Shown here in pieces: positions 2,504 to 40,015 of a stretch of 64,000 nucleotides of DNA. The translations under genes and the position numbers were made by a program. How positions within the stretch are numbered: the stretch's first letter is position 1; every line of letters starts with the position of its first letter. The notes below the pieces were generated by a model, which was given only the letters and a program-made list of their open reading frames with translations, did not search any database and had not been told where the DNA came from. The DNA is from a virus, in IMG/VR virus record IMGVR_UViG_3300027896_000002, positions 10,128 to 74,127 of that record; one strand, written 5' to 3'.

Positions 2504-3826
2504 ATGGACCCGATAGAAGTTGAAGTTAAAAAGAAAGAGGACGGCTCGTTGTATTTTGACGTGGCTAAGATCATGGAGCACATGCAGAATGGCACCTTAG
2601 GCGTTATTAGGCAGGAGATGAAGAGTCTTTTGCAGGCCGAGGTGAAGACCATTTTTGACAACAGCGATGGGCGTTTTGTCGGTAAAGAAGATAAGTCCAT
2701 CATCGACACAAGCTATTTCAGCAAAGGCTACGCGGCTGGCAGACGGGGTGAAATGGACGGAAGCCAGTTGGCTTTTACCCTGGCTGCTTGTGGTGGGCCG
2801 TGGCTAAAGCTCTCACCGGCTATGGAAAAGTTTGCAAACTTAGTTCGGCTGAGATTCGATCCCAATCAGATTGTCGCTAAGGGAATTAGCATGCAGGACT
2901 ATAACAAGGAGATGTATGATTGGAACAAGAAGGCCGCACTTTCTGGAGCTTTGACAGAGGCTGATGTGGGCGCGATTGTTCCAATTGAGTTCCTTGCAAC
3001 CGTCATTGAGTTTGCGATTGAGCAGAGCAAGATATTGCCCAAGCTCTGGAGAATTCCACTGGGTGCCTATCAGACAAGAATCCCGCAGCTTGCCCAGTCT
3101 GCAGGCAGCTATTTTGGTGGGATTTTGCTCTATCACCCAGAGGAAGCTTACGAGAAGACAGGTACAAAACCAACTTTCGTTTACAAGACCCTGACACCTA
3201 AGAAGTTGATCGGTTTGATTCCGATCTCTGACGAATTGGTTATGGACAGCTCAATCAACATCATCAATTACCTAACGGGCCTTTTCACCAGGGCCTTTCA
3301 GTATGCGTCAGAGGGTGAGGTGATTGCAGGTGCTGGGCTGTTGGGCCAGATGCTGGGCATCACCAGTGACCCTTTTATCAACGTAGTGCCCAGACAGACA
3401 GCAGGGACAGTCAAGAGAGATGATGTGATTAACCTTGAGTCTATCCTTGATGAGAACTTTCAGGACCTTAATTACCTGACAAGGAGAACAACCCTTAATA
3501 TTCTTCGCAAGGAGAAAAATGTTGTTGGCACTCCATTTTACTATGACACGATGGAGTCTGGGCTTGAGAGAGGGGTTGGCCCCCAGCTTAATGGGTATCC
3601 AGTGCTTAAAACTCGGAACGTGCCAGCCACAGGAAAGAAAGGTGACATCATCTGTGGTGAGCTTGGGTATTATCTCTGGGGCATTCGTCAGGACATGACC
3701 ATTGATATGTCAGCCGAGCGATATTTTGAGTACGATGTGAAGGCCATCCGCTTTGTGGTTCGTCAGGACGGACTGCCAGGCGTTTCGATTGCCTTTGCAG
3801 TGCTTGACAGTACCCCAGAATCATAA
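2504..3826 (+). CDS. Major capsid protein, HK97 fold
   Basis: GAIVPIEF...IE, KKLIGLIPISDEL..DS, LNGYPV, FEYDVKAIRFVVRQDG motifs; strong SD AAGGAGG. Confidence 0.92.
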   Translation: MDPIEVEVKKKEDGSLYFDVAKIMEHMQNGTLGVIRQEMKSLLQAEVKTIFDNSDGRFVGKEDKSIIDTSYFSKGYAAGRRGEMDGSQLAFTLAACGGPWLKLSPAMEKFANLVRLRFDPNQIVAKGISMQDYNKEMYDWNKKAALSGALTEADVGAIVPIEFLATVIEFAIEQSKILPKLWRIPLGAYQTRIPQLAQSAGSYFGGILLYHPEEAYEKTGTKPTFVYKTLTPKKLIGLIPISDELVMDSSINIINYLTGLFTRAFQYASEGEVIAGAGLLGQMLGITSDPFINVVPRQTAGTVKRDDVINLESILDENFQDLNYLTRRTTLNILRKEKNVVGTPFYYDTMESGLERGVGPQLNGYPVLKTRNVPATGKKGDIICGELGYYLWGIRQDMTIDMSAERYFEYDVKAIRFVVRQDGLPGVSIAFAVLDSTPES

Positions 3827-3835
3827 GAGCATTCA

Positions 3836-3914
3836 TCATCCAGCCTCCTTTCTGGATTGAACCGTGGCCCAGGGTAGTAGGGTAAACTGAAGACTGGGCC
3901 AATTTAAAAAGGAG
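3836..3914 (+). promoter_or_regulatory. Post-capsid RNA structure whose loop can pair with the next gene's SD
   Basis: Hairpin ATCCAG/CTGGAT with loop CCTCCTTT complementary to AAAGGAG (3908-3914); second hairpin TGGCCCAG/CTGGGCCA. Confidence 0.45.
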
Positions 3915-3918
3915 AATT

Positions 3919-5049
3919 ATGAACAAGGAGATTCCGGAAGTTTTAAAAGACGCCATTTTTACGGATGATAAAAGCATGGTTGAAGTTGAATATACTTTAT
4001 CTGGGTATGGAGGCGCCAAGACCTGGATTAGTGTGGAGCGGGCACTGCTTGGTGAAGCTCATGGAAGATGGAAGATAGTTAGAAGACTTCAGCGGTATGA
4101 TAACAAGATGATGACAGCGGAGATTCCTCCTGATTCTTTAACCAGGGGCAATTTATTCTCTAATGGAACGTATGAAACCAAGGGGGTAAAAAAAAAGAAA
4201 GTAGCTTGGGTTCAGGACCTGGTGATAAGGGGCGGGGCGGAGATCAGCAATGAGCTTGTCATTAGGACTGGGATTGAGTGTGGGTTTAACATCAAGCGAG
4301 TCTTTCAAACGGTGTCTTGTTCCATTATAGAGGACCTGTTGGGTCAGTGTGATCTTATTGTTCTTAATAACATCTGGGCCTTCTCAGATGAGCAAATGAG
4401 GGTTATTAAGATGTTTATCCAGAAGAAGCCTTATGTTAAATATGAGCATGATCATAGAGAGCTTGGCAGATTAGAATTTTCAAAAGGCCTTTTCTCAAAT
4501 TCTAAGCTTAACGTCTTTTTGTCCCCTGCCCATCTTAATAACTATCAAGAGAAGCTTGGGATAGACGGAATCTGTCTGCCTCTTGCCATTGATGTTGATC
4601 TTTTTAAACCTGTACAGGGGGTTGAGAGGAAATCTAACACGGCGCTGATATGTAACGTCAGGCATCTTAGGACATGGTTAAATCTTCAGAAATATGTGGA
4701 CGAGCATCCTGAGATTTTATTTACGGTAATGTTAAACGGTGAGACTAAGGTGGTGGGAGATAATGTTACCACCAGGCCGATGATTCCATATGAAGAGATG
4801 CCTAAACTTTATTCTGGGTTTGAGTACCTTGTCCATATCATGGATGGGTGGGGAGCTGGAGAGAGAGTCTTCTTTGAAGGCATGCTTTGTGGATGTAATG
4901 TGATTTCAAACAAAAGGGTAGGACATACTTCCTGGAATGAGCAGGAATCTATGGGTTGGGTCGTTGATTTTAAAGACGTCAATGGCTTGAGAGAATGGCT
5001 CAAGAAAGCGCCATATCAGTTTTGGAAAGCAATTGACCAAAGAATATAA
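3919..5049 (+). CDS. Glycosyltransferase (GT-B, GT4-like) with N-terminal extension
   Basis: GGAE motif, IDVDLFKP, GERVFFEGMLCGCNVI (E-x-x-x-x-G acceptor/donor motif). Confidence 0.8.
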   Translation: MNKEIPEVLKDAIFTDDKSMVEVEYTLSGYGGAKTWISVERALLGEAHGRWKIVRRLQRYDNKMMTAEIPPDSLTRGNLFSNGTYETKGVKKKKVAWVQDLVIRGGAEISNELVIRTGIECGFNIKRVFQTVSCSIIEDLLGQCDLIVLNNIWAFSDEQMRVIKMFIQKKPYVKYEHDHRELGRLEFSKGLFSNSKLNVFLSPAHLNNYQEKLGIDGICLPLAIDVDLFKPVQGVERKSNTALICNVRHLRTWLNLQKYVDEHPEILFTVMLNGETKVVGDNVTTRPMIPYEEMPKLYSGFEYLVHIMDGWGAGERVFFEGMLCGCNVISNKRVGHTSWNEQESMGWVVDFKDVNGLREWLKKAPYQFWKAIDQRI

Positions 5050-5060
5050 TAGGGATTTAC

Positions 5061-5822
5061 GTGAAAATATTTTGGGCATTTTGCATTTATAATGAAAGAG
5101 AAATGCTTCCTTTCAAGATAGATTTCATGAGAAAGAATGCCATCAATTTTTATGTCTTTGATAATGTAAGCGTAGATGGGTCGTGGGAATGGCTTCAAGA
5201 GAACAAAATTCCGTCTGGTAGGTTCAACTCTGATGGAATGTTCAACCTGACATTAAACCTTAGTTTGTTGACCAAGAAGATTCACGAGGTGAAGCCTGAT
5301 TGGGTTATTATGGCTGGGACAGATACCTTCTATGTCCATGGTAAGAGGACGCTTAGGGAGACGATAGAATCTGTGGACAAGCAGGGATTTAATTGTATCT
5401 ATGATGTTTTTAAATCGTTTCAGTTTATGTTTACTGGGGAAGAAAAACCTGGGGAAGATCCTAGGTTGACTTATATGTATTATGTTTTAAAATCTTTTAA
5501 TAATGTTTGCTGCATTGCCAAGTATTGTTCGCAGCTGAAGTTTAGGTCTGCTGATTGTCTTGTTGTCCCAAAGGCAAAGTTATATCAAGACGGGGATTTT
5601 GTGGCATTGCATTATAGCATGAGGCATGACGCAGAGAACAGGAAGACGGAACAATACATCAGGAGAAAAAAAGCTTGGGATTCGGGGCGTACCGCACGGT
5701 GCTATGGCACTCACTACGAGAGGATCGTGAACAGCGGCCGTTTTATTTTTGATAAAAAAGATCTCCTAGATGTAAGAGATTCTTTTCTTTGGGGGGCTAT
5801 AAGGAAGTCTGTAGAAGCGTGA
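5061..5822 (+). CDS. Glycosyltransferase (GT-A, GT2-like)
   Basis: IYNE..ML, VFDNVSVDGSWEWL, PDWVI...TD motifs. Confidence 0.75.
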   Translation: MKIFWAFCIYNEREMLPFKIDFMRKNAINFYVFDNVSVDGSWEWLQENKIPSGRFNSDGMFNLTLNLSLLTKKIHEVKPDWVIMAGTDTFYVHGKRTLRETIESVDKQGFNCIYDVFKSFQFMFTGEEKPGEDPRLTYMYYVLKSFNNVCCIAKYCSQLKFRSADCLVVPKAKLYQDGDFVALHYSMRHDAENRKTEQYIRRKKAWDSGRTARCYGTHYERIVNSGRFIFDKKDLLDVRDSFLWGAIRKSVEA

Positions 5823-6778
5823 TGAATGTTGTGATGCTTTCTAAACATGATTATGCTGGGAGCGGGTGGCAGATAGTCCAGGCTGTTCGTCGTCACACGA
5901 GGCATAATATTGTGCACGTCAAAACGACCTCCCATAAGCACGGTTATAAGACAGACTATATTCTAGATGGAAAAAATCGGGCAGTTGTTCAAGGGCTTGT
6001 GGACAAGGCTGATGTTGTTCACTTCAAGGGAGATGATCTTCCATCGAGAGATTGGTATGGAGTTAAGATCCCAGAGAAAGTGAAAATTATTCTTACCGTT
6101 GGGGGATCGTTTTTTAGAAGAAATGGAAGGAGGACAGGGCTTAGGCCAATTGAAGAGTATGTTAAAAGATCGGATTTTAGGACTGCCTTGTCTCCTGATT
6201 TGAATTATGATGAATTTAAGTCAGTGTATACTCCATACTTGATCGATAGCGAAAAAGCGGAGTATTCTTGGAAAGAGGATAGGGATGGAAAGTTTGTTAT
6301 TGGCTGCTATCCTGGAGTGAGAAAAGAAAAGGGTTTTGAATCAGTTGTCGAGCCTGCTTGGCGTCAGCTTGAAAAGGAAGGATATAAATTTGAGAAGGTG
6401 TTAACGATTGGAATGACATACGAACAAAGCGTTGGGGCCAAGAAGGGGATGTCAATATTTATAGATCAGATTTCCTTGGCCGGCTGCTATGGGAATTCTG
6501 CTCTTGAGGCCATGCAGTTTGGCATTCCTGTAGTTGCTTATATAGGAGATGTGGCTTTAAAGCATGCCATGGAAGAATTTAAAAAATCTCCGATTATGAA
6601 TCCTGGAAAAACAAAGGAGGGGCTTTATCTTTTACTCAAGAGGATACTGTCAAGAAAAATTGACTTGTCAGATATATCTAAAAAGACGAAATGTTACTGC
6701 GATGGTTTTCACTCCTATACCGTAGGGGCAAGGATATGGAATGAGATTTATGAAAAAGTTGCAAGCAAAAATGTTTAA
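5822..6778 (+). CDS. Glycosyltransferase (GT4-like)
   Basis: IFIDQI...YGNSALEAMQFGIPVV; ATG overlaps upstream TGA (ORF track starts at 5789). Confidence 0.75.
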   Translation: MNVVMLSKHDYAGSGWQIVQAVRRHTRHNIVHVKTTSHKHGYKTDYILDGKNRAVVQGLVDKADVVHFKGDDLPSRDWYGVKIPEKVKIILTVGGSFFRRNGRRTGLRPIEEYVKRSDFRTALSPDLNYDEFKSVYTPYLIDSEKAEYSWKEDRDGKFVIGCYPGVRKEKGFESVVEPAWRQLEKEGYKFEKVLTIGMTYEQSVGAKKGMSIFIDQISLAGCYGNSALEAMQFGIPVVAYIGDVALKHAMEEFKKSPIMNPGKTKEGLYLLLKRILSRKIDLSDISKKTKCYCDGFHSYTVGARIWNEIYEKVASKNV

Positions 6779-7379
6779 AAACGTTTTAGTTGTGTCTCCT
6801 CACACGGATGATGGTGAACTTGGGGCAGGGGGGTCATTGGCTAAATTCTCAAGAGAAGGAAGCCAAATTACTCATCTGGTGTTTTTTGATGGGGAAAAGC
6901 AGTCAGAGGAAATTTTAAAAGAGTTTGAAAAGTCAAACGGTATTTTTGCCCCATCTTCAAACAGGATAGTGGAGAGGCTTAAGATAAGAAGTTATGAAAA
7001 GGACCGTCAAAGAATATTGGATTTAATGATTGAAATTGAAAGAAGTTTTAAACCAGACCTTGTCTTTCTTCCCTCGTCGAGAGACTTTCATCAAGATCAC
7101 ATGACGGTTTCAAGGGAAGGGCTTAGGGCATTTAAATTTTCTACTATCTTCGGTTATGAGGAACCTTGGAATAACCTCGTGTTTGAGACGTCTTGCTTTA
7201 TTGAGATATCAAAAGGAGATCTTTCAAAGAAATTGCGGGCGTTAAATTGTTATAAGTCTCAAAAGGCGCACTATTATTTTTCAGATGAGATTATTCGATC
7301 ACTGGCTTTAGTCAGGGGAATGCAGATCAGGGCTCAGTACGCGGAGGCATTTGAGATCATTAGGATGATTGTTCATTGA
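6741..7379 (+). CDS. PIG-L/LmbE family N-acetylsugar deacetylase
   Basis: SPHTDDGELGAGG and DFHQDH metal-binding motifs; likely start 6771. Confidence 0.9.
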   Translation: MRFMKKLQAKMFKNVLVVSPHTDDGELGAGGSLAKFSREGSQITHLVFFDGEKQSEEILKEFEKSNGIFAPSSNRIVERLKIRSYEKDRQRILDLMIEIERSFKPDLVFLPSSRDFHQDHMTVSREGLRAFKFSTIFGYEEPWNNLVFETSCFIEISKGDLSKKLRALNCYKSQKAHYYFSDEIIRSLALVRGMQIRAQYAEAFEIIRMIVH

Positions 7380-7951
7380 GGAGTAATGGTTTGAAAATGA
7401 TAGAAAGATTCAAGTTTTGTCTGGAGATGAGAGAGAAATGTCCTGAGACTCTTGGGATTCATCCCTCAATAATTATCCCAGAATGGGTTTTAATTGGGAA
7501 AAATGTTTCAATTCATGAGAGAGTTATCTTGGGAAGTCAGGGTTTTGGATTTGCGAGAGATGAGGATGGCCATTGGTTTCATATCCCTCACGTTGGAAAG
7601 GTGATAATTGAGGATGACGTAGAGATATTTGAAGGGACAAATGTTTGCCGTGGTACGCTGGGAGATACTAAAATTGGCAGGGGGACGAAGATTGATGCCT
7701 TATGCCACATTGGGCATAATGCCGTGATAGGAGAAAATTGTATCATAACCGCTCATTGCATGATCGCAGGGTGCGTGATAGGAAATGACGTGTGGGTTGG
7801 CCCAAATTCAACGACTAAGCCCAAGATCCAGATAGCTGACAATGTGCTCATAGGCCAAGGTTCTAATGTCGTTGAGAGTATCCTAAAGCCTGGGGAAGTT
7901 TGGGCAGGAAATCCAGCTCGTTTTTTAAGAATGAGAAAACCGTTTGAGTAG
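7376..7951 (+). CDS. Hexapeptide-repeat acyltransferase (LpxD-like C-terminal part)
   Basis: GSQGFGF, VIIEDDVEI, TKIDALCHIGHN, WAGNPAR. Confidence 0.88.
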   Translation: MRSNGLKMIERFKFCLEMREKCPETLGIHPSIIIPEWVLIGKNVSIHERVILGSQGFGFARDEDGHWFHIPHVGKVIIEDDVEIFEGTNVCRGTLGDTKIGRGTKIDALCHIGHNAVIGENCIITAHCMIAGCVIGNDVWVGPNSTTKPKIQIADNVLIGQGSNVVESILKPGEVWAGNPARFLRMRKPFE

Positions 7952-7962
7952 AAAGGTAAAAA

Positions 7963-8217
7963 ATGTCATTGCATCCGGTGACTGATGAGGAGAGAAGAGC
8001 CAATAACCCAAAGATGTATGTGAGCAACAAGTGGACGATTTGTGAGTTGCTGCGAAAGATTTATATTTTGGCTGAAGCCAGGAATGATACAAGAACAATG
8101 CACCTTTCTCACGACGCTCTTTGCTATGCTAAAAGAATGAATCTTAAGCTAGGCCAAAAAGATCCGAAGTATGGAGAAGAGTGGTATTATGGTAAACGAG
8201 AAAGAAAAAATTATTAA
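7963..8217 (+). CDS. Hypothetical protein
   Basis: ORF with SD inside the glycan cluster. Confidence 0.55.
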   Translation: MSLHPVTDEERRANNPKMYVSNKWTICELLRKIYILAEARNDTRTMHLSHDALCYAKRMNLKLGQKDPKYGEEWYYGKRERKNY

Positions 8218-9136
8218 GAGGGCTTTGGTTACGGGCGGGGCAGGTTTTATAGGCTCTCACTTATGTGAGCGGTTGACGGGCATGGGGATTGAAGTAATTT
8301 CTCTTGATGATTATTCTGCTGGTCACATTGAAAATTTACGGAAAGTTCATTGCAAAAAAGTATATGGAGATGTGCTCAATGAATATTTGGTAATGGACTT
8401 GATGAAAGATGTGGATGTGGTATTTCACAACGCAGCAAGTAAAAAAACCATCTGCATCGCAGATCCTAAACATGATCTTGACGTAAATGCCAAGGGAACT
8501 TTGACACTGCTTACGGCAGCTTTGAAACAGGGGGTAAAAAAATTTATTCATGCATCAACTGGTTCTGTTTATGGACAGCCCTCCTGTTTTCCACAGGACG
8601 AAGATCACCCCTTGAGGCCGATCTCTTATTACGGCGTGAGTAAGTTGGCTGGGGAACGTTACGTTGAAATGTTTTACAAATTGTTTGGTTTAGACACGAC
8701 AATTTTGAGATATTTTCACGTGTATGGGCCTCGACAGGCTAATGGAAAATATGGCGGAGTGGTGGCAATTTTTATTACAGGCATGTTGATGGATTTGCCA
8801 ATATTTATTCACGGGGATGGTAGTCAAGAGAGATCTTTTACCTATGTGAAAGATATAGTAGACATAAATCTGGAAGCAATGAAATCTCCTTTTTCAAGTG
8901 GGCAGGTTTATAATTGTGCCTCTGGGCTGCACGTAAGCGTGCTTGATTTGCATCGGGAACTTGCAAGGCAATTAGATTGTAATGGAAAATCTCCAGTTTA
9001 TACAGAGAGTGATCTGGGAGAAGTTTTTAAGTTTGACGTTTCAAATGAAAAAGTCAAGAAGGATTTGAAGATAAATTTTACGTCGCTCGATGAAGGATTG
9101 CGGGAGACAATATCTTGGTTCAAGGTCAGTGCCTAG
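8171..9136 (+). CDS. NAD-dependent nucleotide-sugar epimerase/dehydratase
   Basis: VTGGAGFIGSHL, YGVSK (YxxxK), LRYFHVYGPRQ. Confidence 0.93.
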   Translation: MEKSGIMVNEKEKIIKRALVTGGAGFIGSHLCERLTGMGIEVISLDDYSAGHIENLRKVHCKKVYGDVLNEYLVMDLMKDVDVVFHNAASKKTICIADPKHDLDVNAKGTLTLLTAALKQGVKKFIHASTGSVYGQPSCFPQDEDHPLRPISYYGVSKLAGERYVEMFYKLFGLDTTILRYFHVYGPRQANGKYGGVVAIFITGMLMDLPIFIHGDGSQERSFTYVKDIVDINLEAMKSPFSSGQVYNCASGLHVSVLDLHRELARQLDCNGKSPVYTESDLGEVFKFDVSNEKVKKDLKINFTSLDEGLRETISWFKVSA

Positions 9137-9855
9137 TAGAGGTGATTGTCTTGAAGATATGTGCTTATCTACCCATTTATAAAAGAGAGGGACTTTTGGC
9201 GGAAACACTTCGAAGATTGAAACACCAGACATTGTCATTTGAGCGTATTGTAACTGTTGGAAGTTGTGACGAGGACAAGGAGATTGCAAAAAAATTTGGG
9301 GTTGATTATATTGGCCATGAAAACCATCCCTTGAGTGATAAGATTCAGGCAGGGGTGTCATACCTTCGTCAATTTAAACCTGATGCAATTATGGGCATAG
9401 GTTCAGATGATTGGGTTACAAGTAATTGGGTTGAGGAGGTCTCCAAATGCTTAGGAGAATTTGATATCATTGGGGCAGACCACTTTTATCTTTTTCTCGT
9501 AGATTCAAAGCCAATACAGTTGATTCGGTACTGTTATCCCTCTTCTCGGTATGGTGAGCCGATGGGCGCAGGCAGATTTGTATCAAGACGGATTTTGGAT
9601 AAGCTTGATTGGAGGCTTTATCCTCGGGGATTTGAATGGGGCCTTGACGGTAAAAGCCACAGCAGGATGGTGGCTTTAGGTGCAACGTACTCATTGTATA
9701 GAAGTGATAAAGCAAAAATCTTATGCCCAAAAGGAATTCAGGGACAATTGACCACTTGGGACCATGCGATCAACTCAGATCGCAGTAAGAAAATTGATGA
9801 TAAGCACTGGATCAGCACAAATTTCCCTGGCGTTGTAATGGAAGGGTCGGTATGA
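9115..9855 (+). CDS. Glycosyltransferase (GT2-like)
   Basis: LPIYKR, GIGSDDW, GAGR motifs. Confidence 0.7.
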   Translation: MVQGQCLVEVIVLKICAYLPIYKREGLLAETLRRLKHQTLSFERIVTVGSCDEDKEIAKKFGVDYIGHENHPLSDKIQAGVSYLRQFKPDAIMGIGSDDWVTSNWVEEVSKCLGEFDIIGADHFYLFLVDSKPIQLIRYCYPSSRYGEPMGAGRFVSRRILDKLDWRLYPRGFEWGLDGKSHSRMVALGATYSLYRSDKAKILCPKGIQGQLTTWDHAINSDRSKKIDDKHWISTNFPGVVMEGSV

Positions 9856-10643
9856 TTCTGATCGTCTCAAGGTTTGGTAGAATGAATAAATATCCAGATC
9901 AGGTTATGATGAGGAAAACATTGGCTGCTTTTTTAAGATCTCTGGACAATCAGACGGATAAGGGCTTCAGGGCTTTCTTAAGCTGCCATGATGTACCAGA
10001 GGGGTTCAATTATCCCTGGCTTGAATGGTGTTCGATGGCCGCTAACCCAGAGAACAGTGGCACAAAATACTGGAAACGATTCCCTATAAATCTAGATGAT
10101 CTTGGAGAAAGAATTGTCTGTACGTATGGCAGCAAAATTCAAGACTCTGGCCGTAAGGGGATTCACTCGGTGATAAAAGCAGGGCAATGGGCATATAGAA
10201 ATGGACTAAAAGATTTTTGGATAATGAGGATGGATAGCGACGACATGCTTGCAAAACGCACGATTGAAACTATTCACGCTCTTGATAAGCAAGGGATAGA
10301 GGCTATTTATAATAGACGCTGTCACATCTTTGACGCACGAACAAGAGAGATTGGGGAATATAATTACAGATCTTCTACAACCTGTAACGCTCTTAAGATG
10401 AGAATTGAGAAAAATATACTCCTGCGTTGGTTTTATCTTTGCACCAATCACACGAGATTTATCTCTGATGTGAGGAGAGATAAAATAAAATTTAAAGAGG
10501 TAGACTGGACTTATTGCATTGTCACTAATTCTAGGAATTCAATTTCTAGCAGGCCAACATTAACCGCAGAGAGATGGGCAAGGAAAATTGGCATGACGAA
10601 GAAATTATCAGATCGCTATGGCTTAGATCAGTTTGGGAGATAA
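9852..10643 (+). CDS. Putative glycosyltransferase (GT-A)
   Basis: SLDNQTDKGF, MRMDSDDML (DxD). Confidence 0.65.
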   Translation: MILIVSRFGRMNKYPDQVMMRKTLAAFLRSLDNQTDKGFRAFLSCHDVPEGFNYPWLEWCSMAANPENSGTKYWKRFPINLDDLGERIVCTYGSKIQDSGRKGIHSVIKAGQWAYRNGLKDFWIMRMDSDDMLAKRTIETIHALDKQGIEAIYNRRCHIFDARTREIGEYNYRSSTTCNALKMRIEKNILLRWFYLCTNHTRFISDVRRDKIKFKEVDWTYCIVTNSRNSISSRPTLTAERWARKIGMTKKLSDRYGLDQFGR

Positions 10644-11379
10644 CGTGATTGACATAATTGTTACAACGTATAATCGACTTCATTTTTTACAAAGTACTCT
10701 TGAAAGTCTTCTTGACAGCGTAACTAGTGAGCTGTTCAAACTTTATATCATTGATGATTGCAGCTTTGACGGGACGAGGGAATATCTTAGCAAGATGAAT
10801 AAATTTCTTGACATTTCTATCATCCTATCTGATGAAAGAAGAGGGGTCGTTCCAAACTTTAATTCTTTGTGGGATACAGTTATTTTAAATGAAAGGCATC
10901 CATTCTTGTGCTATCTGCAGGACGATATAGTTGCAGTGGAAAAAGATTGGCTTACCGTATTGACTGTGGCGTGGCACGAAATGAAAGACGCCTATAAGAT
11001 TGGTTTTTTGAGTGGGTATGATGCTCCAGAGCATCCAACAGAAAGAGAAATAATGTGGATGGGTCGAAATGTAAAGATTAAGAAGTCTACGTCAGGGCAA
11101 AATTTATTCGCTGATAAGAAGTTTTGGGCTTCTATAGGAAAGCCCCCTGAATTAAATTTTAATGGTTCGGTGCGTGGCTTTCCAGACAATGGTAAAGGGT
11201 CTAATATTGATGTCTGGTTTACAGGTTGTTATTCCTTGAGTAAATTTGACCAGAAAAATGCAGCTCCTAATTGTCTTTATAAGCAAGGCAAGAGGGTTAT
11301 GGTTATTCCAATGTTAAAGCATCTTGGCATTGAAAAAAAAGACTCAACTTGGCGACAAAATCGGGTCGGAGGGTTTTAA
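10633..11379 (+). CDS. Glycosyltransferase (GT2)
   Basis: IIVTTYNR, IIDDCSFDGT, YLQDD. Confidence 0.85.
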   Translation: MGDNVIDIIVTTYNRLHFLQSTLESLLDSVTSELFKLYIIDDCSFDGTREYLSKMNKFLDISIILSDERRGVVPNFNSLWDTVILNERHPFLCYLQDDIVAVEKDWLTVLTVAWHEMKDAYKIGFLSGYDAPEHPTEREIMWMGRNVKIKKSTSGQNLFADKKFWASIGKPPELNFNGSVRGFPDNGKGSNIDVWFTGCYSLSKFDQKNAAPNCLYKQGKRVMVIPMLKHLGIEKKDSTWRQNRVGGF

Positions 11380-11385
11380 GGAAAG

Positions 11386-12396
11386 ATGGGAAAAAGCGTA
11401 GCATATTTTGCTAACGGAATTGGAAATTTTATTATGATGATGCCTGCCCTGCAAGCAATGGCAACCTTGGCAGATAACAAGGTAGTAGACATCATTATAG
11501 ATAGCAATTGGGTTGACAACCGAAGACCCGCGGTCGAGGAGATCTGCACAGCTTGGCCTGTAATAGGAAAGATTATAAGGTATCCTAAACAAAAGTTCGA
11601 TAAAAATAGCTATGGGCACTGGTTCTTTACTGTTCATGGAATGACAAATGGCGCAGCCTCTATATTCCTTCCGAGAATGAAAAAGATTATTCCAAAACCC
11701 CACTGGAGATCTTCTCAAACGCATGAGAGAGATTATTATATGAATGTGGCGAGAGGGGTGGGGTACGAAGGTTTAGAACCAGAGATTCAGTTTCCATTGG
11801 CTAAGAATCCTATTGTTAATTTAACAAGGCCAATTATTGGTTTGTGCAATGGGTACTTTCGCACTTTTAATCATTATTGGGATAAAAAGGGATGGCAGTA
11901 TTTTCCAAGGTTGTCAGAAATTTTAGCACTGTATTTTGGTGGGTCTGTTGTTGGCCTTGGCCATGAGAATGAGATTCCAAAGGGGACAAAGCTTATTGTA
12001 GATTATGCAGGCAAACTTTCTATTTTGGAGACAGCTAAGGTTTTATCTCAGCTTGATTTGTTTATTACCACAGATACGGGGCTTATGCATCTGGCAGATG
12101 TACTTAATATCCCCACCATAGCAATGTTTGGGCCAACGCTTGTGACCAAAAACGGGATTAGGGGAGAGAATTCTTATGTTCTGCAAGCGGGCCTTAAGTG
12201 TGTCCCATGTCAGGAGACCTCAGCATATTATATGTGTAAGTTGAATGAATGCATGAGGTCTATTAAAACAGATGATGTGATGGCTAAGGCAAAAGAAATT
12301 TTGGGAGGACATGCCAATGAGCGAAGTTATCATAGCTGGAATTATAAAGTGGAGCGATCTTCAGAATTGGATAGAACCGTCTCCTCTGGATACTGA
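11386..12396 (+). CDS. Glycosyltransferase family 9 (heptosyltransferase-like)
   Basis: GIGN..M..PAL, FITTDTGLMHLA...PTIAMFGPT, CVPC...C...CM. Confidence 0.9.
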   Translation: MGKSVAYFANGIGNFIMMMPALQAMATLADNKVVDIIIDSNWVDNRRPAVEEICTAWPVIGKIIRYPKQKFDKNSYGHWFFTVHGMTNGAASIFLPRMKKIIPKPHWRSSQTHERDYYMNVARGVGYEGLEPEIQFPLAKNPIVNLTRPIIGLCNGYFRTFNHYWDKKGWQYFPRLSEILALYFGGSVVGLGHENEIPKGTKLIVDYAGKLSILETAKVLSQLDLFITTDTGLMHLADVLNIPTIAMFGPTLVTKNGIRGENSYVLQAGLKCVPCQETSAYYMCKLNECMRSIKTDDVMAKAKEILGGHANERSYHSWNYKVERSSELDRTVSSGY

Positions 12397-13000
12397 TCTC
12401 GGAAAGCTAACGCTGATCGGAGAGGGCGTTGTTTCTGACGCTGAAGATTATGTTCATGGAAAAATTAGTCGAGTTGAGGGTGAAATTGCCCATCTCGATG
12501 GGGGTAAAAATTATTTGACTTTACCTCATTTGAATGTCAGCAACGTTTTAATTTGGGAGGATATGAACAGGGTCTTTGGTAGTTCCACTTTGATCAATCC
12601 AAAAAGATATCAAGTTTATGGGCCGAGGGGAATTGCCAGAATTGGGAAGCCTAAGAGCCATTCGATAGGGGGTATTGCCTGGATGGATAGATTTTTCTCC
12701 GATTACTATTGGGATGATTTCTGGTTTGATAGATTTTTTGAGGGGAGGAGAGAATTTATTCATGGCAGGCTTGTAATAAAGGTTCGGTACGATGGGGGTT
12801 GGGATCAAGATACAGTTGAAAAAGGGTTGAAGCTTGCCATGATAACCCAGATTGGATATCGGTACAGAAGAAGAAAAGATCCTGGTCTTTCAACAGTGAG
12901 TTATCCAGATGGGTCGGTGACAAAAATGATGAACATCGATCAATGGCTTCCAGAGGTTAAAGCTACATTGAATAAGTATAAGAGGATATCGTTGATATGA
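12311..13000 (+). CDS. Head-tail connector/adaptor protein
   Basis: VRYDGGW...LKLAM...YRRR and LP.VK..L..YKR C-terminus; position. Confidence 0.7.
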   Translation: MPMSEVIIAGIIKWSDLQNWIEPSPLDTDLGKLTLIGEGVVSDAEDYVHGKISRVEGEIAHLDGGKNYLTLPHLNVSNVLIWEDMNRVFGSSTLINPKRYQVYGPRGIARIGKPKSHSIGGIAWMDRFFSDYYWDDFWFDRFFEGRREFIHGRLVIKVRYDGGWDQDTVEKGLKLAMITQIGYRYRRRKDPGLSTVSYPDGSVTKMMNIDQWLPEVKATLNKYKRISLI

Positions 13001-13656
13001 ATACATTAGATGTTGTCTATGAAAGTAAAATAGATATAAACCAGATCGCGCCATCGTTAACGAAAAAATTAGTTAGGACATTTGATCTTGGTGCTATTTG
13101 GCTGCAGAAACTTATTAGAACGGGATATATGAGTGGGCCAACGTCTGCTAAGTCGGTGAGCGTTAGAACTGGAGCTCTTAGGGCATCGGTGATACCGATT
13201 AAGACTGAAATCAAGGAAGATGCCGTTCAGGCAGGGGTTTCTATTGGTGGGAACATTTCACAAGGAGCAGGTACTCCAGCTGGTCGATATGCAGGGGTTC
13301 ATGTTGGAGGATATAGGTCTACTGTCATATCGGCAAAGAACAAAAAGTTTCTAACCATTCCCCTTACGGCTGCAAAAACTGGAGCAGGGGTAGCAAAAGG
13401 TTCAGCCTTAAGTGGTATTTGGGGTGAGACGTTTATTGCGAAGTCAAAGCAAGGAAATTTAATTATCTTTGGAAGAGAGAAGTTTGTCAAGGGGAAAAAG
13501 ATGGGAGAATTTAAGACGCCTATAGTTCCTCTTTTTCTTTTAAAGAAATCTGTTTCTGTACCAGGGAGAATTCATCCAAATGAAATTCTTGAGACCTTTG
13601 GCCGAAAATTAATTGGAGATTTATCAGCTCTCGGCATAGAAGACATAGGAAAGTGA
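12997..13656 (+). CDS. Neck/tail-completion protein (HK97 gp10-like)
   Basis: VRTGALRASV, YAGVHVGG; position. Confidence 0.6.
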   Translation: MNTLDVVYESKIDINQIAPSLTKKLVRTFDLGAIWLQKLIRTGYMSGPTSAKSVSVRTGALRASVIPIKTEIKEDAVQAGVSIGGNISQGAGTPAGRYAGVHVGGYRSTVISAKNKKFLTIPLTAAKTGAGVAKGSALSGIWGETFIAKSKQGNLIIFGREKFVKGKKMGEFKTPIVPLFLLKKSVSVPGRIHPNEILETFGRKLIGDLSALGIEDIGK

Positions 13657-14333
13657 AAATGGATAAGGTGATCTTAGCGATTGGTGGTGTGGTCATTAAA
13701 ACTGCTTGGGAAGAGTTGAAAGAGGTAGTCAGAAGCGAGAAAGTTGAGATCCTTGTTCATAACGGGGCTTCACTTTTTCATGACTTTCAGAGGGCAACGG
13801 ATAAAATTCTTGCAGCAGCTGGGATGCATTCATATCCGTTGGATGATCTTTTAATTAACAGAGAACTTGATCGACCTGCTGCTAATTTAGTTTGGAGTTG
13901 GATCAGGGGGGCACAGGCACCAGAAGCAAGCGTAACAAGGATTTGCGAGGAGATGAAAATTCCAACTCTTTGCTTCACGGCATTAGGATGTGATTTCTGG
14001 CAGCTTTTTGATCGAGGGTGGGATGAATTCGCGCAGAAAACAAAAAGGGATTTGGCTTTTTTGGCCAATAGGATGGTGGGAGGGCAGTTCCATTATCTTC
14101 TTCTTGGCTCTGCCGTGATTCACCCTGAGATATTTAGATCGGCAATGGCTCTTGCAAAGCCTGGAGTCTTTCGTGCTGATGTCGTGGATTTTAAGGATAT
14201 GTATCGGCCCCGGACAAGGGTTGCCAGGTATGGTTCTTATTATCAAACAGACTTTAAAACTTTTTTAAGAAAATGGCTTAATGAGGATAAAGTTATGCCA
14301 GGATTAGATTTTCAAGACGTAAGCAATCATTAG
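13653..14333 (+). CDS. Deoxyhypusine-synthase-like (NAD-binding fold) protein
   Basis: VHNGASLFHDF, LGSAVIHPEIF and YRP motifs recall bacterial DHS-like proteins; recognised from memory only. Confidence 0.45.
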   Translation: MKMDKVILAIGGVVIKTAWEELKEVVRSEKVEILVHNGASLFHDFQRATDKILAAAGMHSYPLDDLLINRELDRPAANLVWSWIRGAQAPEASVTRICEEMKIPTLCFTALGCDFWQLFDRGWDEFAQKTKRDLAFLANRMVGGQFHYLLLGSAVIHPEIFRSAMALAKPGVFRADVVDFKDMYRPRTRVARYGSYYQTDFKTFLRKWLNEDKVMPGLDFQDVSNH

Positions 14334-14809: not shown

Positions 14810-15337
14810 ATGGAACACACACCGCATGATGTTCAGTTATTGTCACTTGGCAAGGGGATTTTGAAGTTTGACCGGTTTGATGTCGATGGTCTTCCAACTG
14901 GGTTGGTTGATATCGGCAATGCTCCAACCTTCAACCTTACTATAACGGTTGATAAGTTAGAGCATCTTAGCTCGCGTGAAGGTGTCGCGACGATGGACGA
15001 TCAGGTTATTCGGTCGAGAAAGATGGAAGGTGATTTTGAGCTCGATGAACTGGGCCGTGAAAATCTTCGTCTTTGGTTGATGGGCAAGATCGGAAGTTTT
15101 GGCATTAAACCAATGACCGCGGGCGCGATTCAGGGAATGATTGATTTTATAGGAACGAGCGACGTTGGCCCTCGTTATCATTTCCAGGGATGGGTTGTCA
15201 ATCTCTTTCCAAAGGGCTCTCTCGGCTTGATCAGCACTGATTGGGGGAAGATGGGTTTTGATTTTACAATTCTTCAGGATTCGGTTGGGCATCCTGACAG
15301 TCCTTGGGGTGATTTGACCTTGTTGGGTCAATCATAA
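14810..15337 (+). CDS. Major tail tube protein
   Basis: LGKG.L.F, DIGNAPTFNL, PKGSLGLIS..WG motifs; strong SD. Confidence 0.8.
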   Translation: MEHTPHDVQLLSLGKGILKFDRFDVDGLPTGLVDIGNAPTFNLTITVDKLEHLSSREGVATMDDQVIRSRKMEGDFELDELGRENLRLWLMGKIGSFGIKPMTAGAIQGMIDFIGTSDVGPRYHFQGWVVNLFPKGSLGLISTDWGKMGFDFTILQDSVGHPDSPWGDLTLLGQS

Positions 15338-26413: not shown

Positions 26414-27763
26414 ATGGCAAGACTTTGGACTTGTGGCTTTGAGCTAAATTCTACAACCACTGGGATCGAATGGTCTGGTGGTTCTCACAATGTTTCTATT
26501 GGAATAACGAACGTTAGAAGCGGGACCTATTCACTACACTTTCCAGCTAACATCCAAAGTTATATTTATCAGCATTTTAACTCTGGTAATGTCAATGGTC
26601 CTTTCTATTTTCGTATGTATGTCTATGTGACCCATGCCCCAGCAGGTGCATCAGATATTTTAGACTTTCAAGATTCAGGTGGCACTCATAGACTATATGT
26701 ATATCTTAACGCCGATATGACCTTAACCCTGAAAGATGGGGCGGGTGTTACAATAGGGTCATCATCTGCTTTTAGTTTAAATGATTGGCATTGCATAGAA
26801 GCCAGTTATTATAACAATGGGGTGTCTGGAAAGGCTGAATTGGAAGCACGCCTCGACTATGGCGCTTTTGCTTCAACAACGACAGATGCTAATAATGGAA
26901 CAGTTAATCTTGTAAATATTGGAAATGAGTTGAGTGACGCACAATTAATCTTTGACATAGATGACCTCGCGATAAACGACAATACGGGTGCATTTCAGAA
27001 TAGTTATCCAGGAAGCGGAAAAGTAATCCGTTTAAAGCCGAACGCCGATGGAGATGCACACGCATGGCTTAAATCTGGTGGCGGTGCAGGAGATGCAAAC
27101 AACTATAACCAGGTATATGAAGTAACCCCAGATAATGCGGCGACATATCTAAAGGCTTTAAACCTTAACGTAGAGGATTTTTACAATTGTGACAACTCTG
27201 GAATAGGGGCCGGTGATATCGTCAATGTGGTTCAGGTTGGTGTTAGGTTTTCAGGCTATGCCAGTGGTTCTTATGGGCAACAATTTAAGGTTGAGTGTAA
27301 GAAAGCTTCAGCTGGAACAATTGCCCAAGGTTCAGCGATTGTAGGGGTAAATAATTGGAGAACAAATACACCTTCTCTCCCGTTTTTTCCTACTCTTACT
27401 TTACATCAAGACCCAGATGGTGGTGCCTGGACGCAGGCTACGTTAGACACCATGCAGATAGGAATGAAACAAACTGGTTATTATGCAGGTTGTTATGATT
27501 ATGTTTCTACTATATGGGCTTACGTAGATTATACCCCGGCAGCAACCACGACGACTACTACCACTACAACCTCAACTACAACGACGACAACGACGACGAC
27601 CACCACGACGACGACGACGACGACCACCACCACCACTACTACCACCACCACCACCACCACTACTACGACGACCACTACTACGACGACCACTACTACGACG
27701 ACCACTACCACGACGACCACCACTACCTCGCCACCATTATTTGTCCTGTGGCTGAGCGGGTGA
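26414..27763 (+). CDS. Virion beta-sandwich/lectin-like protein with C-terminal poly-Thr tract
   Basis: CGFE N-terminus, RSGTYSL, WHCIE, IDDLAIND; 60 Thr + 1 Ser at 27545-27727. Confidence 0.7.
   Translation: MARLWTCGFELNSTTTGIEWSGGSHNVSIGITNVRSGTYSLHFPANIQSYIYQHFNSGNVNGPFYFRMYVYVTHAPAGASDILDFQDSGGTHRLYVYLNADMTLTLKDGAGVTIGSSSAFSLNDWHCIEASYYNNGVSGKAELEARLDYGAFASTTTDANNGTVNLVNIGNELSDAQLIFDIDDLAINDNTGAFQNSYPGSGKVIRLKPNADGDAHAWLKSGGGAGDANNYNQVYEVTPDNAATYLKALNLNVEDFYNCDNSGIGAGDIVNVVQVGVRFSGYASGSYGQQFKVECKKASAGTIAQGSAIVGVNNWRTNTPSLPFFPTLTLHQDPDGGAWTQATLDTMQIGMKQTGYYAGCYDYVSTIWAYVDYTPAATTTTTTTTTSTTTTTTTTTTTTTTTTTTTTTTTTTTTTTTTTTTTTTTTTTTTTTTTTTTTSPPLFVLWLSG
27545..27727 (+). repeat. Poly-threonine coding tract (ACN codons)
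   Basis: 61 codons mixing ACC/ACG/ACT/ACA with one TCA. Confidence 0.95.
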
Positions 27764-27777
27764 GAAAGGAGAAGATT

Positions 27778-27963
27778 ATGGAAAAAGTTTTATGTAAAGA
27801 TTGTAAGGCTTGGGAAAGAGATGGGGCAGACGGGATATGTTGTAAAAATGCTCCAAGGCCAGAATGTCTTCCAATCGATAAGAAAGGATATACTCTTGTG
27901 TTGCCAAGAACCCAGGCTAATGGAGGATGCTTTGAAGGCATCCTGATAGAGGTGGCAAGTTGA
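27778..27963 (+). CDS. Small Cys-rich protein
   Basis: MEKVLCKDCKAW...C..GC; SD AAGGAG. Confidence 0.6.
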   Translation: MEKVLCKDCKAWERDGADGICCKNAPRPECLPIDKKGYTLVLPRTQANGGCFEGILIEVAS

Positions 27964-29024
27964 AGCTAAGCGTAATTATCCCAAATCGAAACGACACAGT
28001 GATGCTTGCCATCACGGTCAGAAGCATCCTTGAAGAGCTGAAAGCCGTGGAGGGTGGCGGGGAGATCGTGGTCGTTGACAATTCAGACGAGGACCTTTGG
28101 CTAATTTTGAAGACCATGAACGTTAGCCCTCTTGCCCTTCAATACGTCGAGGAGGGGAAAGTTCAACTCATCCATCAAAAGTTTCAAGGTATCTATTCGG
28201 CCAGGGCAGAGGCCATTCGAGCCGCCCGGGGGGAGTATGTCTATAACGTCGACAGCCACATGCTGGTCGGCCACAACACCCTGAAGGATATGGTTGACTT
28301 TATGGACGCAGATAAAGAGGGAAAGGTTGGCTTTGCCTTCTCGCCGATCGGTTGGTTCAGTGCCCACGAGGCCCTTGCAAGGCACGATATCCGAATTGAT
28401 CAGGGGACGATTTTTGGCAGCTGGGGAAAACGGTATTATAGGCCGATGAAGATCTGCTGGAACTTTGGCTCGTGCATCTGTCGAACGAGATGGTTCAATG
28501 AGGATTTTGGAGGATATGGTTTCTTTGATAAAAAAAGAATCTCATGGGGAGGGGGAGAATTTTATGCCGCCATAAAATCCTGGCTTCTTGGATATGAGAA
28601 CTGGGCGGTGCCGACAAGCCCTCAATACCACATTGGGCCATTTTCCAAGGAGATTGAAGCAAGAACATCCTACCGTTTTAGACAGTATGGGGGTTCAGGG
28701 AACGGAAAACTTGGGATAGGGATTTTTGCAGCTTTCTATGCTCTTGGCGGAGACGAGATGAAGGAAGAGGCATGGAACGCAGAAATTGCTGGAGTGGGTA
28801 AAAATTATGGCATCAGCGTCGAGCGAGATTGGGAAACGGCCAAGGAACTTGCCCACGAGGATTGGCTGTGGTTAAAGGAAAAGCAGAAGCTAACCTATTT
28901 TAAGCTCATGGAAAAACAACCCTGGAAAGAGGACGGATGGGGAGATTGGGAAAATTGGAAGCCAGACAAAGACGCTGGGATAAAAAGGGTCTTCAATCTG
29001 GCCAACTTAAAAGTGATTGGTTGA
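27960..29024 (+). CDS. Glycosyltransferase (GT2; ppGalNAc-T-like motifs)
   Basis: SVIIPNRN, EIVVVDN, ARGEY...DSH (DxH), WGGGE. Confidence 0.85.
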   Translation: MKLSVIIPNRNDTVMLAITVRSILEELKAVEGGGEIVVVDNSDEDLWLILKTMNVSPLALQYVEEGKVQLIHQKFQGIYSARAEAIRAARGEYVYNVDSHMLVGHNTLKDMVDFMDADKEGKVGFAFSPIGWFSAHEALARHDIRIDQGTIFGSWGKRYYRPMKICWNFGSCICRTRWFNEDFGGYGFFDKKRISWGGGEFYAAIKSWLLGYENWAVPTSPQYHIGPFSKEIEARTSYRFRQYGGSGNGKLGIGIFAAFYALGGDEMKEEAWNAEIAGVGKNYGISVERDWETAKELAHEDWLWLKEKQKLTYFKLMEKQPWKEDGWGDWENWKPDKDAGIKRVFNLANLKVIG

Positions 29025-29473
29025 AAGGTGTCATCGCTGACGTTCATCCGAGCGTAAAGTTCGGAAAGAATTGTTTAGTCTGGTCTTTTGCCGTGATCTG
29101 TCAGGGCGTGGAGATAGGAGAAAATTGTGCAATCGGTTCGGGGGTGTTTATAGGAAAGAATTGCAGAATAGGCAATAACGTAAGGATCCAAGATAAGGCA
29201 CACTTGACTCCGGGCATGATCGTTGAGAACAATGTCTTCATCGGGCCATGCGTAGTAACAATGAACGATAAATATCCAGTTGTATTAAATCCTGATTATG
29301 CGAAACGGCCCCCTTATTTTGAGGAGGGGTGCTCAATCGGAGCTGGAGCAATCATACTTCCAGGAGTCCGAATAGGGAGGTTCTCTGTAATTGGGGCAGG
29401 GGCTGTCGTGACTAAAGATGTAATAGCAGAATCAATCGTGGTTGGATGCCCTGCAAAAAAGATAACTGATTAG
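28937..29473 (+). CDS. Hexapeptide-repeat N-acyltransferase (WbpD/FdtC-like)
   Basis: VFIGPCVVTMND.YP, SIGAGA.ILPGV.IG, VVGCPAK; start likely near 29021. Confidence 0.88.
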   Translation: MGRLGKLEARQRRWDKKGLQSGQLKSDWLKGVIADVHPSVKFGKNCLVWSFAVICQGVEIGENCAIGSGVFIGKNCRIGNNVRIQDKAHLTPGMIVENNVFIGPCVVTMNDKYPVVLNPDYAKRPPYFEEGCSIGAGAIILPGVRIGRFSVIGAGAVVTKDVIAESIVVGCPAKKITD

Positions 29474-37718: not shown

Positions 37719-38225
37719 CTATGCTTCATAGGATAGTACTTTTTCATGGAGGATAGACCATTTGACTCCTAACTCAGAGAACAGTTGCTTTGACCTTTCA
37801 GAACTCTGATAGTCATAGGTGGCCTTAACCTCAACGATACCTACGTTCACGATGGCCTTAGCGCAGTCATAACACGGAAAAATTTTACAGTATAAAATTG
37901 CTCCTTCTACCGTGGGGCCATAGCGAGCCGCTTGTAGAATAGCATTAAGCTCCGCGTGCAAAGTCCTGGCACAATTTTTTGTTTCAATTTGCATATCATT
38001 TGACCAGTATTTTCTTGATTCGATCTCATGTCCAGCCTCATCACAGTGAGGTGCCCCCATTGGAGAGCCAACATGCCCAGTGGCAATGATCCGGCCTTGT
38101 TTCACGATGACTGCCCCAGCCATCCCTCGGTCACAGGTGCCACGCAAAGTAATCGCCTCAACTACGGCTCGATAGTATTCATCCCTTGAAATTCGGCTCA
38201 TAGTTTCTCCTTTCCTGCTAACCAA
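37719..38225 (-). CDS. dCMP deaminase
   Basis: HAELNA and PCYDC zinc motifs. Confidence 0.92.
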   Translation of the reverse strand: MVSRKGETMSRISRDEYYRAVVEAITLRGTCDRGMAGAVIVKQGRIIATGHVGSPMGAPHCDEAGHEIESRKYWSNDMQIETKNCARTLHAELNAILQAARYGPTVEGAILYCKIFPCYDCAKAIVNVGIVEVKATYDYQSSERSKQLFSELGVKWSILHEKVLSYEA

Positions 38226-39996: not shown

Positions 39997-40015
39997 TTCA
40001 ATGGACGTTAAATTC

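Follow-up and report, generated by a model that had tools for sequence, protein, structure and literature searches.

We analyzed a 64,000-nucleotide (nt) stretch of viral DNA (the window), which corresponds to bases 10128 to 74127 of the 74,127-bp IMG/VR virus record IMGVR_UViG_3300027896_000002, and describe here an island of glycan-building genes within its head module. The island (positions 3919 to 12396 of the window) consists of 11 open reading frames (ORFs), all on the plus strand, that run from the major capsid protein gene to the head-tail adaptor gene and encode three GT-B and four GT-A glycosyltransferases (GTs), a PIG-L deacetylase, an LpxD-like acyltransferase, a uridine diphosphate (UDP)-hexose 4-epimerase, and one small ORF. 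We think it probable that these genes form a pathway that is expressed late, operates entirely in the cytoplasm, and glycosylates virion proteins of the phage itself. Virion glycosylation, which an initial annotation of this DNA had put forward, is the best supported of the functions considered because of the position of the island in the slot between capsid and adaptor genes, the terminal serine on two virion proteins, the predicted solubility of the enzymes, and the lack of an integrase gene.

Gene content of the island

The initial annotation counted seven GTs (two GT4-like, four GT-A, and one GT9) between the capsid and connector genes, and this count stands, with two of the GT-A calls coming from weak or indirect matches. 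The PIG-L deacetylase, hexapeptide acyltransferase, and nucleoside diphosphate (NDP)-sugar epimerase that it named are all present as Pfam matches, and the genes are as closely packed as it described, with same-strand spacing that ranges from an 86-nt overlap to a 92-nt gap. The island ORFs are given below, together with the bordering genes and the major tail protein gene (lengths in amino acids [aa]).

2504-3826, plus strand: major capsid protein, HK97-type, 440 aa, C terminus ...DSTPES (PF05065, 1e-31; phrog_10)
3919-5049, plus strand: core enzyme 1, a 376-aa GT-B glycosyltransferase and candidate priming enzyme (PF13524, weak at 4e-4 and below cut-off)
5061-5822, plus strand: accessory GT-A-like protein, 253 aa (PF13704, weak at 6e-4 and below cut-off; PF00535 in 1 of 27 homologues)
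5789-6778 (or 5822-6778), plus strand: accessory MshA-like GT4 (family profile against PDB: MshA 7qsg at 2.6e-4, then other GT4 enzymes)
6741-7379, plus strand: PIG-L family de-N-acetylase (PF02585, 5.8e-14, 53.1 bits against a cut-off of 28.2)
7376-7951, plus strand: left-handed beta-helix hexapeptide acyltransferase (PF00132, 1e-20)
7963-8217, plus strand: small ORF, 84 aa (no Pfam or PHROG family)
8171-9136, plus strand: UDP-hexose or UDP-N-acetylhexosamine (HexNAc) 4-epimerase-like SDR enzyme, putative donor supply (PF01370, 2e-58)
9115-9855, plus strand: GT2 glycosyltransferase, 246 aa (PF00535, 1.9e-6)
9852-10643, plus strand: GT-A-like protein, 263 aa (family matches PF11316, putative rhamnosyltransferase)
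10633-11379, plus strand: GT2 glycosyltransferase, 248 aa (PF00535, 8e-13)
11386-12396, plus strand: core enzyme 2, a GT9 family GT-B enzyme (PF01075, 1e-14, 55 bits against a cut-off of 22)
12311-13000, plus strand: head-tail adaptor, downstream border of the island (phrog_442, 7e-8)
14810-15337, plus strand: major tail (tube) protein, Ig-type, 175 aa, C terminus ...LLGQS (phrog_807, 5e-23)

Residues 92 to 376 of the 376-aa enzyme resemble GT1, GT4, CgeB, and GT9 folds in its ESM Atlas model, with template modeling (TM) scores of 0.6 to 0.67, and its N-terminal part of ~90 aa is variable and unique. Every one of its 147 homologues is from an uncultured source, and no match was found in cultured phages. 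The GT9 enzyme at the opposite end of the island has one weak match in cultured phages, and its family profile searched against PDB returned WaaF (1psw, 3.5e-13), 3tov, and WaaC, with a D-T-G-x-M-H donor-site motif aligned. Four cysteines of this enzyme (C272, C275, C284, and C289, forming a C-x-P-C...C...C cluster) are invariant in 29 GT9 relatives and absent from the aligned WaaF/WaaC region; the cluster may be a metal site.

Among the genes between these two enzymes, the 253-aa protein is probably a GT-A enzyme, judging from its own match and that of its homologue. The GT4 yielded no Pfam match as a single sequence, and several of its 84 homologues are listed with PF00534; since the database form of this protein is 318 aa long, its start should lie near 5822. 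The PIG-L deacetylase has an additional BshB1-like match (2e-15, below cut-off). For the acyltransferase, the best NCBIfam matches were LpxD models (4e-48, below cut-off) at model positions 157 to 313 of 345, which is the beta-helix part only; the N-terminal uridine-binding part of LpxD is missing, and the next-best family was NeuD/PglB/VioB (1.5e-21). The best PDB matches of the epimerase were UDP-glucose 4-epimerase (4zrm, 3e-52), followed by WbpP and WbgU. No match was obtained for the 263-aa protein as a single sequence, and within its family PF11316 was matched by 9 of 15 members (best 1e-7) and PF00535, weakly, by 3 of 15, with an invariant D-S-D-D motif (D128-S129-D130-D131). Profiles of the 253-aa and 263-aa families returned no PDB matches, an hhalign comparison between both families was insignificant, and single-sequence PDB searches with three unassigned proteins returned nothing useful.

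Conservation of the slot and of the terminal serines

Three scans of IMG/VR, which used the capsid protein, an alignment of the 376-aa enzyme, and an alignment of the capsid protein, recovered 145 loci. Some contigs were present under two locus identifiers, and counts were made on unique protein sequences. The initial annotation had suggested synteny in related phages as a check, and the arrangement recurs in dozens of related contigs and is therefore more than chance. In 52 of the 71 unique-capsid loci, the capsid gene is followed by a gene for a homologue of the 376-aa enzyme, at a median distance of ~120 nt, and most of the 19 others break off within 2.5 kb past the capsid gene. Fourteen loci include both capsid and adaptor genes; among these, the smallest island, 2.0 kb at locus L078, encodes just GT9 and the 376-aa enzyme, and the largest spans 10.3 kb and 14 ORFs. 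The tally for the initial 79 loci was 42 with GT9, 31 with the 248-aa GT2, 16 with the 263-aa family, 10 with hexapeptide transferases, 7 with the epimerase, 5 with the 84-aa ORF, 4 with the 246-aa GT2, 2 with the 253-aa protein, 1 with the MshA-like GT4, and none with PIG-L.

The 338 ORFs in the relatives' islands grouped into 128 clusters at 35% identity. Representatives of these clusters included nine GT2, five GT1/GT4, two GT17-like, and two GT9 enzymes, as well as many S-adenosylmethionine (SAM) methyltransferases, epimerases/dehydratases, radical-SAM and B12-binding enzymes, 3'-phosphoadenosine-5'-phosphosulfate (PAPS)-reductase-like proteins, and a DegT aminotransferase. The island is built from a conserved two-enzyme GT-B core at the ends of the slot and a highly variable tailoring set between them, an anatomy that, by analogy, resembles that of O-antigen loci. 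The GT17-like enzymes (1e-28), from the family of the animal transferase that adds bisecting N-acetylglucosamine (GlcNAc), were located at L014:11524-12348 and L011:15411-16220, and one relative's island also encodes a protein with a Laminin_G_3 or ConA-like lectin fold (L014:13877-14809). The MshA-like GT4, the epimerase, and the 253-aa GT-A occur together in viral contigs outside this capsid family (L173, L175, L179, and L185), and this recurrence suggests a mobile three-gene sub-cassette.

In a hydropathy scan, at least two hydrophobic segments were found in none of the 11 island ORFs and in none of the relatives' 338, and one marginal segment was found in 24 of the latter. All island enzymes are predicted to be soluble, with no polytopic membrane protein among them, and no Pfam family corresponding to a flippase, polymerase, or GtrA/B-type membrane gene was matched in the island, in agreement with the initial annotation.

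Both the capsid protein (...DSTPES) and the tail-tube protein (...LLGQS) of the window end in serine, and this residue is strikingly constant. The last residue of the capsid protein is Ser in 67 of 70 unique relatives (Thr in two and Gln in one), and that of the tail-tube protein is Ser in 20 of 21, where the lone exception is the first half of a split ORF whose second half ends in Ser. Entropy at the last residue is 0.29 bits for the capsid protein and 0.28 bits for the tail-tube protein, compared to 2.7 to 3.0 bits at positions -2 to -5, and last-residue entropy in the adaptor, 376-aa enzyme, and GT9 families is 2.8 to 3.7 bits. Of 715 other unique proteins encoded at these loci, 53 end in Ser, which gives the background. 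Other Ser-ending virion proteins of this phage (666 aa and 401 aa) have too few homologues for conservation analysis. Given this signature, we propose the terminal Ser of the capsid protein and that of the tail-tube protein as the two most likely glycan acceptors. No group of capsid relatives with neither the terminal Ser nor the island was found for a co-variation comparison. In a sister group (L153 and L155, and also L157 to L159), the capsid C terminus reads ...ATS and a 170-aa protein at the tail-tube position ends in Ala.

A comparison is offered by the virion glycosylation of mycobacteriophages, which is discussed in PMC12619734, PMC12363180, PMC11256854, and PMC11652166. There, glycans are reported at the C termini of capsid and tail-tube subunits (PMC12619734), the modification is termed O-glycosylation (PMC11652166), and Che8, Corndog, and Myrna are named as glycosylated, with Che8 gp110 and Corndog gp38 essential (PMC12363180). 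The annotated capsid and major tail proteins of Che8 (gp6 and gp11, respectively) have Gly-Ser as their last two residues, and in Corndog, gp41 (capsid by position and size) and gp49 (tail subunit by position) end in Ser, for a total of four of four; in the controls L5, Bxb1, and TM4, none of six capsid and tail-tube proteins ends in Ser. We take these three control phages to be devoid of such glycosylation enzymes. The primary paper on mycobacteriophage virion O-glycosylation, covering Che8 gp108-110, Corndog gp35-38, and Myrna, is reportedly that of Freeman et al. in Cell Host Microbe in 2023. In Corndog, the gene directly after the capsid gene encodes gp42 (L100 21779-22027), an 82-aa protein with Glu-Pro-Ala repeats that ends in ...KSTS.

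Proposed pathway and competing explanations

In the pathway that we propose, one of the two conserved GT-B core enzymes probably starts an O-linked glycan on the C-terminal Ser of the capsid and tail-tube proteins. We favor the 376-aa enzyme as the starter because it adjoins the capsid gene and because its variable extra domain could read the tag. Extension and branching of the glycan would then fall to the remaining core enzyme together with the four GT-A enzymes and the MshA-like GT4. The record carries a 97-bp direct terminal repeat (DTR), for which reason we treat the genome as complete, and in the complete genome we found no tyrosine integrase (PF00589), no serine recombinase/resolvase (PF00239) (both controls were positive), and no sugar nucleotidyltransferase. 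Since these are missing, the phage looks virulent and would have to use host nucleotide sugars as donors, with the phage epimerase presumably interconverting UDP-Glc(NAc) and UDP-Gal(NAc). The MshA-like GT4, the PIG-L deacetylase, and the LpxD-like acyltransferase probably act in turn, the first attaching a GlcNAc, the second stripping it of its acetyl group, and the third placing an acyl group on the amine thus exposed. The typical substrate of PIG-L enzymes is GlcNAc already joined to an acceptor, and an acyltransferase without the uridine-binding part of LpxD fits a non-nucleotide acceptor. The deacetylated and re-acylated sugar envisaged in the initial annotation fits this overlapping run of three genes, and the LPS (lipopolysaccharide)-core-like coat that it also envisaged has the GT9 family assignment as its sole basis. 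The expected outcome for the particle would be a variable surface coat.

Farther along the genome lie genes that bear on where the glycan might be placed:

37719-40792, minus strand: base-modification-like module of deoxycytidine monophosphate (dCMP) deaminase, thymidylate-synthase homologue, P-loop kinase-like protein, and SAM methyltransferase
38198-39070, minus strand: thymidylate-synthase homologue (1.8e-25)

Some or all island enzymes might instead glycosylate 5-hydroxymethyl-pyrimidine bases of the phage DNA before packaging, an alternative that the initial annotation had named. DNA glycosylation is a serious rival because this genome holds the thymidylate-synthase homologue, dCMP deaminase, kinase-like protein, and methyltransferase listed above and because phage GT-A and GT-B enzymes similar to LPS, teichoic-acid, BshA, MshA, and PglH enzymes put hexose, HexNAc, or heptose on 5-hydroxymethylcytosine (5hmC) according to Pyle et al. 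(bioRxiv 10.1101/2023.12.21.572611), where gene neighborhoods with structural proteins are mentioned as well. However, the base-modification module lies 26 kb away from the island on the opposite strand, and the same text describes whole-pathway clustering as common for DNA glycosylation genes. The thymidylate-synthase family PF00303 was detected in just one of five large island-bearing related contigs (61 to 79% complete), and the thymidylate-synthase homologue of the window gave a weak match in one of four other related records. Within 10 kb of the MshA-like GT4 in 42 viral loci, a thymidylate-synthase homologue, deaminase, or PolA was found in none, and all three PF00535 matches of the genome are in its structural arm, with none near DNA-modification genes. 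Moreover, the DNA glycans described by Pyle et al. are mono- to trisaccharides, which the seven transferases, deacetylase, and acyltransferase of the island exceed. Serious as this rival is, these comparisons make it a weak one, and we disfavor glycosylation of 5hmC DNA as highly improbable.

Remodeling of the host envelope, which we judge unlikely, would mean that, late in infection, the soluble enzymes modify lipid-linked intermediates of the host (for LPS core, O-antigen, capsule, or exopolysaccharide), with a host flippase and ligase exporting the product, so as to block superinfection or stop progeny from sticking to debris. GT9 is the LPS heptosyltransferase family, the acyltransferase is LpxD-like, the sets of GT2, GT4, epimerase, and methyltransferase genes resemble O-antigen loci, and multi-enzyme clusters of cyanomyoviruses are read as envelope remodeling in PMC12801897. 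Yet this explanation does not account for the island's constant position behind the capsid gene throughout the lineage or for the near-invariant terminal Ser on two unrelated virion proteins. In addition, the island yielded no gene for an initiating phosphoglycosyltransferase, a flippase, a polymerase, or a Gtr-type protein, and the GT9 enzyme scores far under the curated cut-offs of WaaC, WaaF, and WaaQ. The initial annotation had argued against O-antigen conversion, and the lack of polytopic membrane components and of an integrase in the complete genome points the same way; since there is no integrase, lysogenic conversion is not expected. The least probable of these explanations, to which we give a very slim chance, is a split function in which the core enzymes serve the virion and an accessory cassette (253-aa GT-A, MshA-like GT4, PIG-L, acyltransferase, and epimerase) serves another target, such as 5hmC DNA or a small molecule. 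Its appeal is that the cassette is missing from nearly all relatives (in the 79 loci tallied above, PIG-L 0, MshA-like GT4 1, and 253-aa GT-A 2), that at 42 loci in other phage lineages the GT4 is accompanied by the epimerase in 10 cases and by the 253-aa GT-A in 5, and that MshA-PIG-L logic is known from small-molecule thiol pathways. Nevertheless, the cassette genes are translationally coupled inside the island, no DNA-modification genes are near the cassette in other phages, and the relatives' islands swap other tailoring enzymes into the same place, which fits one variable glycan.

Several observations weigh against virion glycosylation itself, the evidence for which is sequence evidence throughout. 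Five loci that extend at least 2.5 kb past the capsid gene (L153, L155, L157, L158, and L159) encode a capsid protein ending in Ser and have no island, so the terminal Ser could be an older family trait that was kept for another reason; these contigs are only 9 to 29% complete, and thus the genes may lie elsewhere. At another locus (L076), an island is present but the capsid protein has Gln as its last residue. The relatives are all members of a single capsid family, and the synteny counts are therefore not independent events. Peripheral, soluble GTs of LPS and O-antigen synthesis likewise have no membrane segments. Lastly, phmmer searches of Che8 gp108-110 and Corndog gp35-38 against the window proteins and the ORFs of the 145 loci gave no matches at E<=0.01, and profiles of the two core families gave no matches at E<=10 against those seven mycobacteriophage proteins. 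Without detectable homology, the island would be a functional analogue rather than a member of the mycobacteriophage enzyme family.

If virion glycosylation is nonetheless correct, we can speculate further, and only tentatively, that the island is a viral counterpart of O-antigen, such that every capsid and tail-tube subunit bears a C-terminal-Ser heteroglycan that is started by the two conserved GT-B enzymes and diversified by exchangeable cassettes. Here, the glycan would include an amino sugar that is de-N-acetylated and then re-acylated by the LpxD-like enzyme, possibly with a fatty acyl group, which would make for a lipoglycan-coated particle. Such a system would imply strong diversifying selection on phage surface glycans in an antibody-free environment.

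Genome context and comparison with known systems

The island belongs to a late operon in the left arm of the genome, and a second glycosylation module lies farther downstream:

Left arm, plus strand: late operon of large terminase, portal-MuF fusion, 773-aa protein, HK97-type capsid protein, head-tail adaptor, Ig-type major tail protein, and tape measure
12-2333, upstream of the capsid gene: 773-aa protein rich in C-x-x-C pairs and histidines, without a real Pfam family
26414-29473, plus strand, outside the island: second glycosylation module, with a 449-aa fibre-like protein, then a GT2, then a hexapeptide transferase
27960-29024, plus strand: GT2 of the second module (PF00535, 2.5e-14)
28937-29473, plus strand: hexapeptide transferase of the second module (PF00132, 5e-27)

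The fibre-like protein carries a threonine run of ~60 residues, and we interpret the second module as a virion-linked, mucin-like glycosylation module, which the 4-epimer donor made by the island epimerase may also feed. We count this module among the observations in favor of virion glycosylation. Conservation of the 773-aa protein in relatives is limited to short parts. Among the head-tail genes, a 226-aa protein (13653-14333) without a Pfam family has a deoxyhypusine-synthase or ArgZ-C-like fold in its Atlas model (TM 0.77 to 0.79), and its homologues are mobile, being upstream of the capsid gene in L010 to L012 and within the island in L026; possibly, it is another enzyme that modifies proteins or sugars. 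A 488-aa ORF between the terminase and portal genes, upstream of the window (genome 2681-4147, L095), matched no Pfam family at E<=0.01.

The GC content of the island is 0.40 to 0.42, compared with 0.46 to 0.47 in the first 4 kb. Scans for promoters and terminators between 2200 and 16200 gave results not above those of shuffles, and no tRNA genes were found. In the spacer between the capsid gene and the gene for the 376-aa enzyme (3827-3918), a C-C-U-C-C-U-U stretch is base-paired to the Shine-Dalgarno region of the latter in the minimum free energy (MFE) fold, adjoining an 8-bp GC-rich hairpin. This fold was not significant against shuffles (z = -1.38); it may damp expression of the enzyme relative to that of the capsid protein. 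One freshwater metagenome DNA run contains the stretch and may be its source, and no RNA dataset is listed with it. No near-identical DNA was matched in cultured phages, among which the capsid protein has only remote relatives (six records at 22 to 27% identity). Assignment of a host from four contigs of metagenome-assembled genomes (MAGs) with the 376-aa family was rejected since the bins disagree (Paceibacterota, Caldatribacteriota, Pirellulales, and a deltaproteobacterium).

The accessory trio invites comparison with pathways in which a GT4 is followed by a PIG-L enzyme, namely, MshA/MshB for mycothiol, BshA/BshB for bacillithiol, and PIG-A/PIG-L for the glycosylphosphatidylinositol (GPI) anchor. 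As in these pathways, an MshA-like GT4 is paired with PIG-L, its gene directly preceding and overlapping that of the deacetylase, which by analogy suggests transfer of GlcNAc and then de-N-acetylation on the acceptor. Unlike in mycothiol, bacillithiol, and GPI synthesis, the next step here would involve an LpxD-like acyltransferase instead of a cysteine ligase, and the acceptor is probably a glycan on protein instead of inositol phosphate, malate, or lipid. The second core enzyme shares with WaaC and WaaF a C-terminal GT9 domain and the donor-binding D-x-G-x-M-H motif, aligned to WaaF, but it reaches only 45.2 bits against the 134.6 cut-off of the heptosyltransferase II equivalog, has its lineage-specific invariant four-cysteine cluster, and is encoded in a virion operon. 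The five PDB matches of the GT9 family profile at E<=10 included no autotransporter protein heptosyltransferase of the TibC type; we presume that TibC structures are present in PDB.

Clusters for DNA hypermodification (T4 alpha- and beta-glucosyltransferases; Pyle et al.) likewise comprise GT-A and GT-B kin of LPS, teichoic-acid, and MshA/BshA enzymes and may be accompanied by an epimerase and secondary transferases, and the present genome has a thymidylate-synthase module; a further example of sugar hypermodification of phage DNA is arabinosyl-5-hydroxycytosine (5hoC), in PMC13326640. In contrast to these clusters, the island is not clustered with base-modification genes, is far larger, is tied to the capsid gene, and does not co-occur with base-modification genes in relatives.

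The closest parallel is with mycobacteriophages. Our literature search found virion glycosylation described for actinobacteriophages only, and neither capsid-adjacent glycan islands nor a terminal-serine tag was found described outside that group; in the literature surveyed, experimental virion glycosylation by phage enzymes was limited to mycobacteriophages, where it is discussed as a shield against antibodies. If the virion is the target here too, phage particles with a sugar coat would be a widespread phenomenon, tagging by a C-terminal serine would either be convergent or date far back, and diversifying selection on the coat would have causes other than adaptive immunity, among which we consider avoidance of decoys, resistance to proteases or grazing, and adhesion to mucus or exopolysaccharide. 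A compact, soluble, cytoplasmic toolkit for protein glycosylation with a one-residue tag would also be of interest for glyco-engineering. Like the mycobacteriophage system, the one described here is phage encoded, with GTs that are predicted to be soluble and with capsid and tail-tube subunits that end in Ser. Corndog has its GT block (gp35-38) within the head module, between the portal and protease genes, as the present phage has its own between the capsid and adaptor genes, whereas the GT genes of Che8 are at the far right end of the genome and not beside the capsid gene. The island has 7 transferases and 3 tailoring or donor enzymes compared to 3 to 4 enzymes in mycobacteriophages, and it differs from theirs in its conserved two-enzyme GT-B core, its highly variable accessory cassettes, and its occurrence in an uncultured freshwater lineage. 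Glycosylation of virions by phage enzymes is known; what would be new is a large freshwater lineage with the same acceptor signature served by unrelated and far richer enzyme sets.

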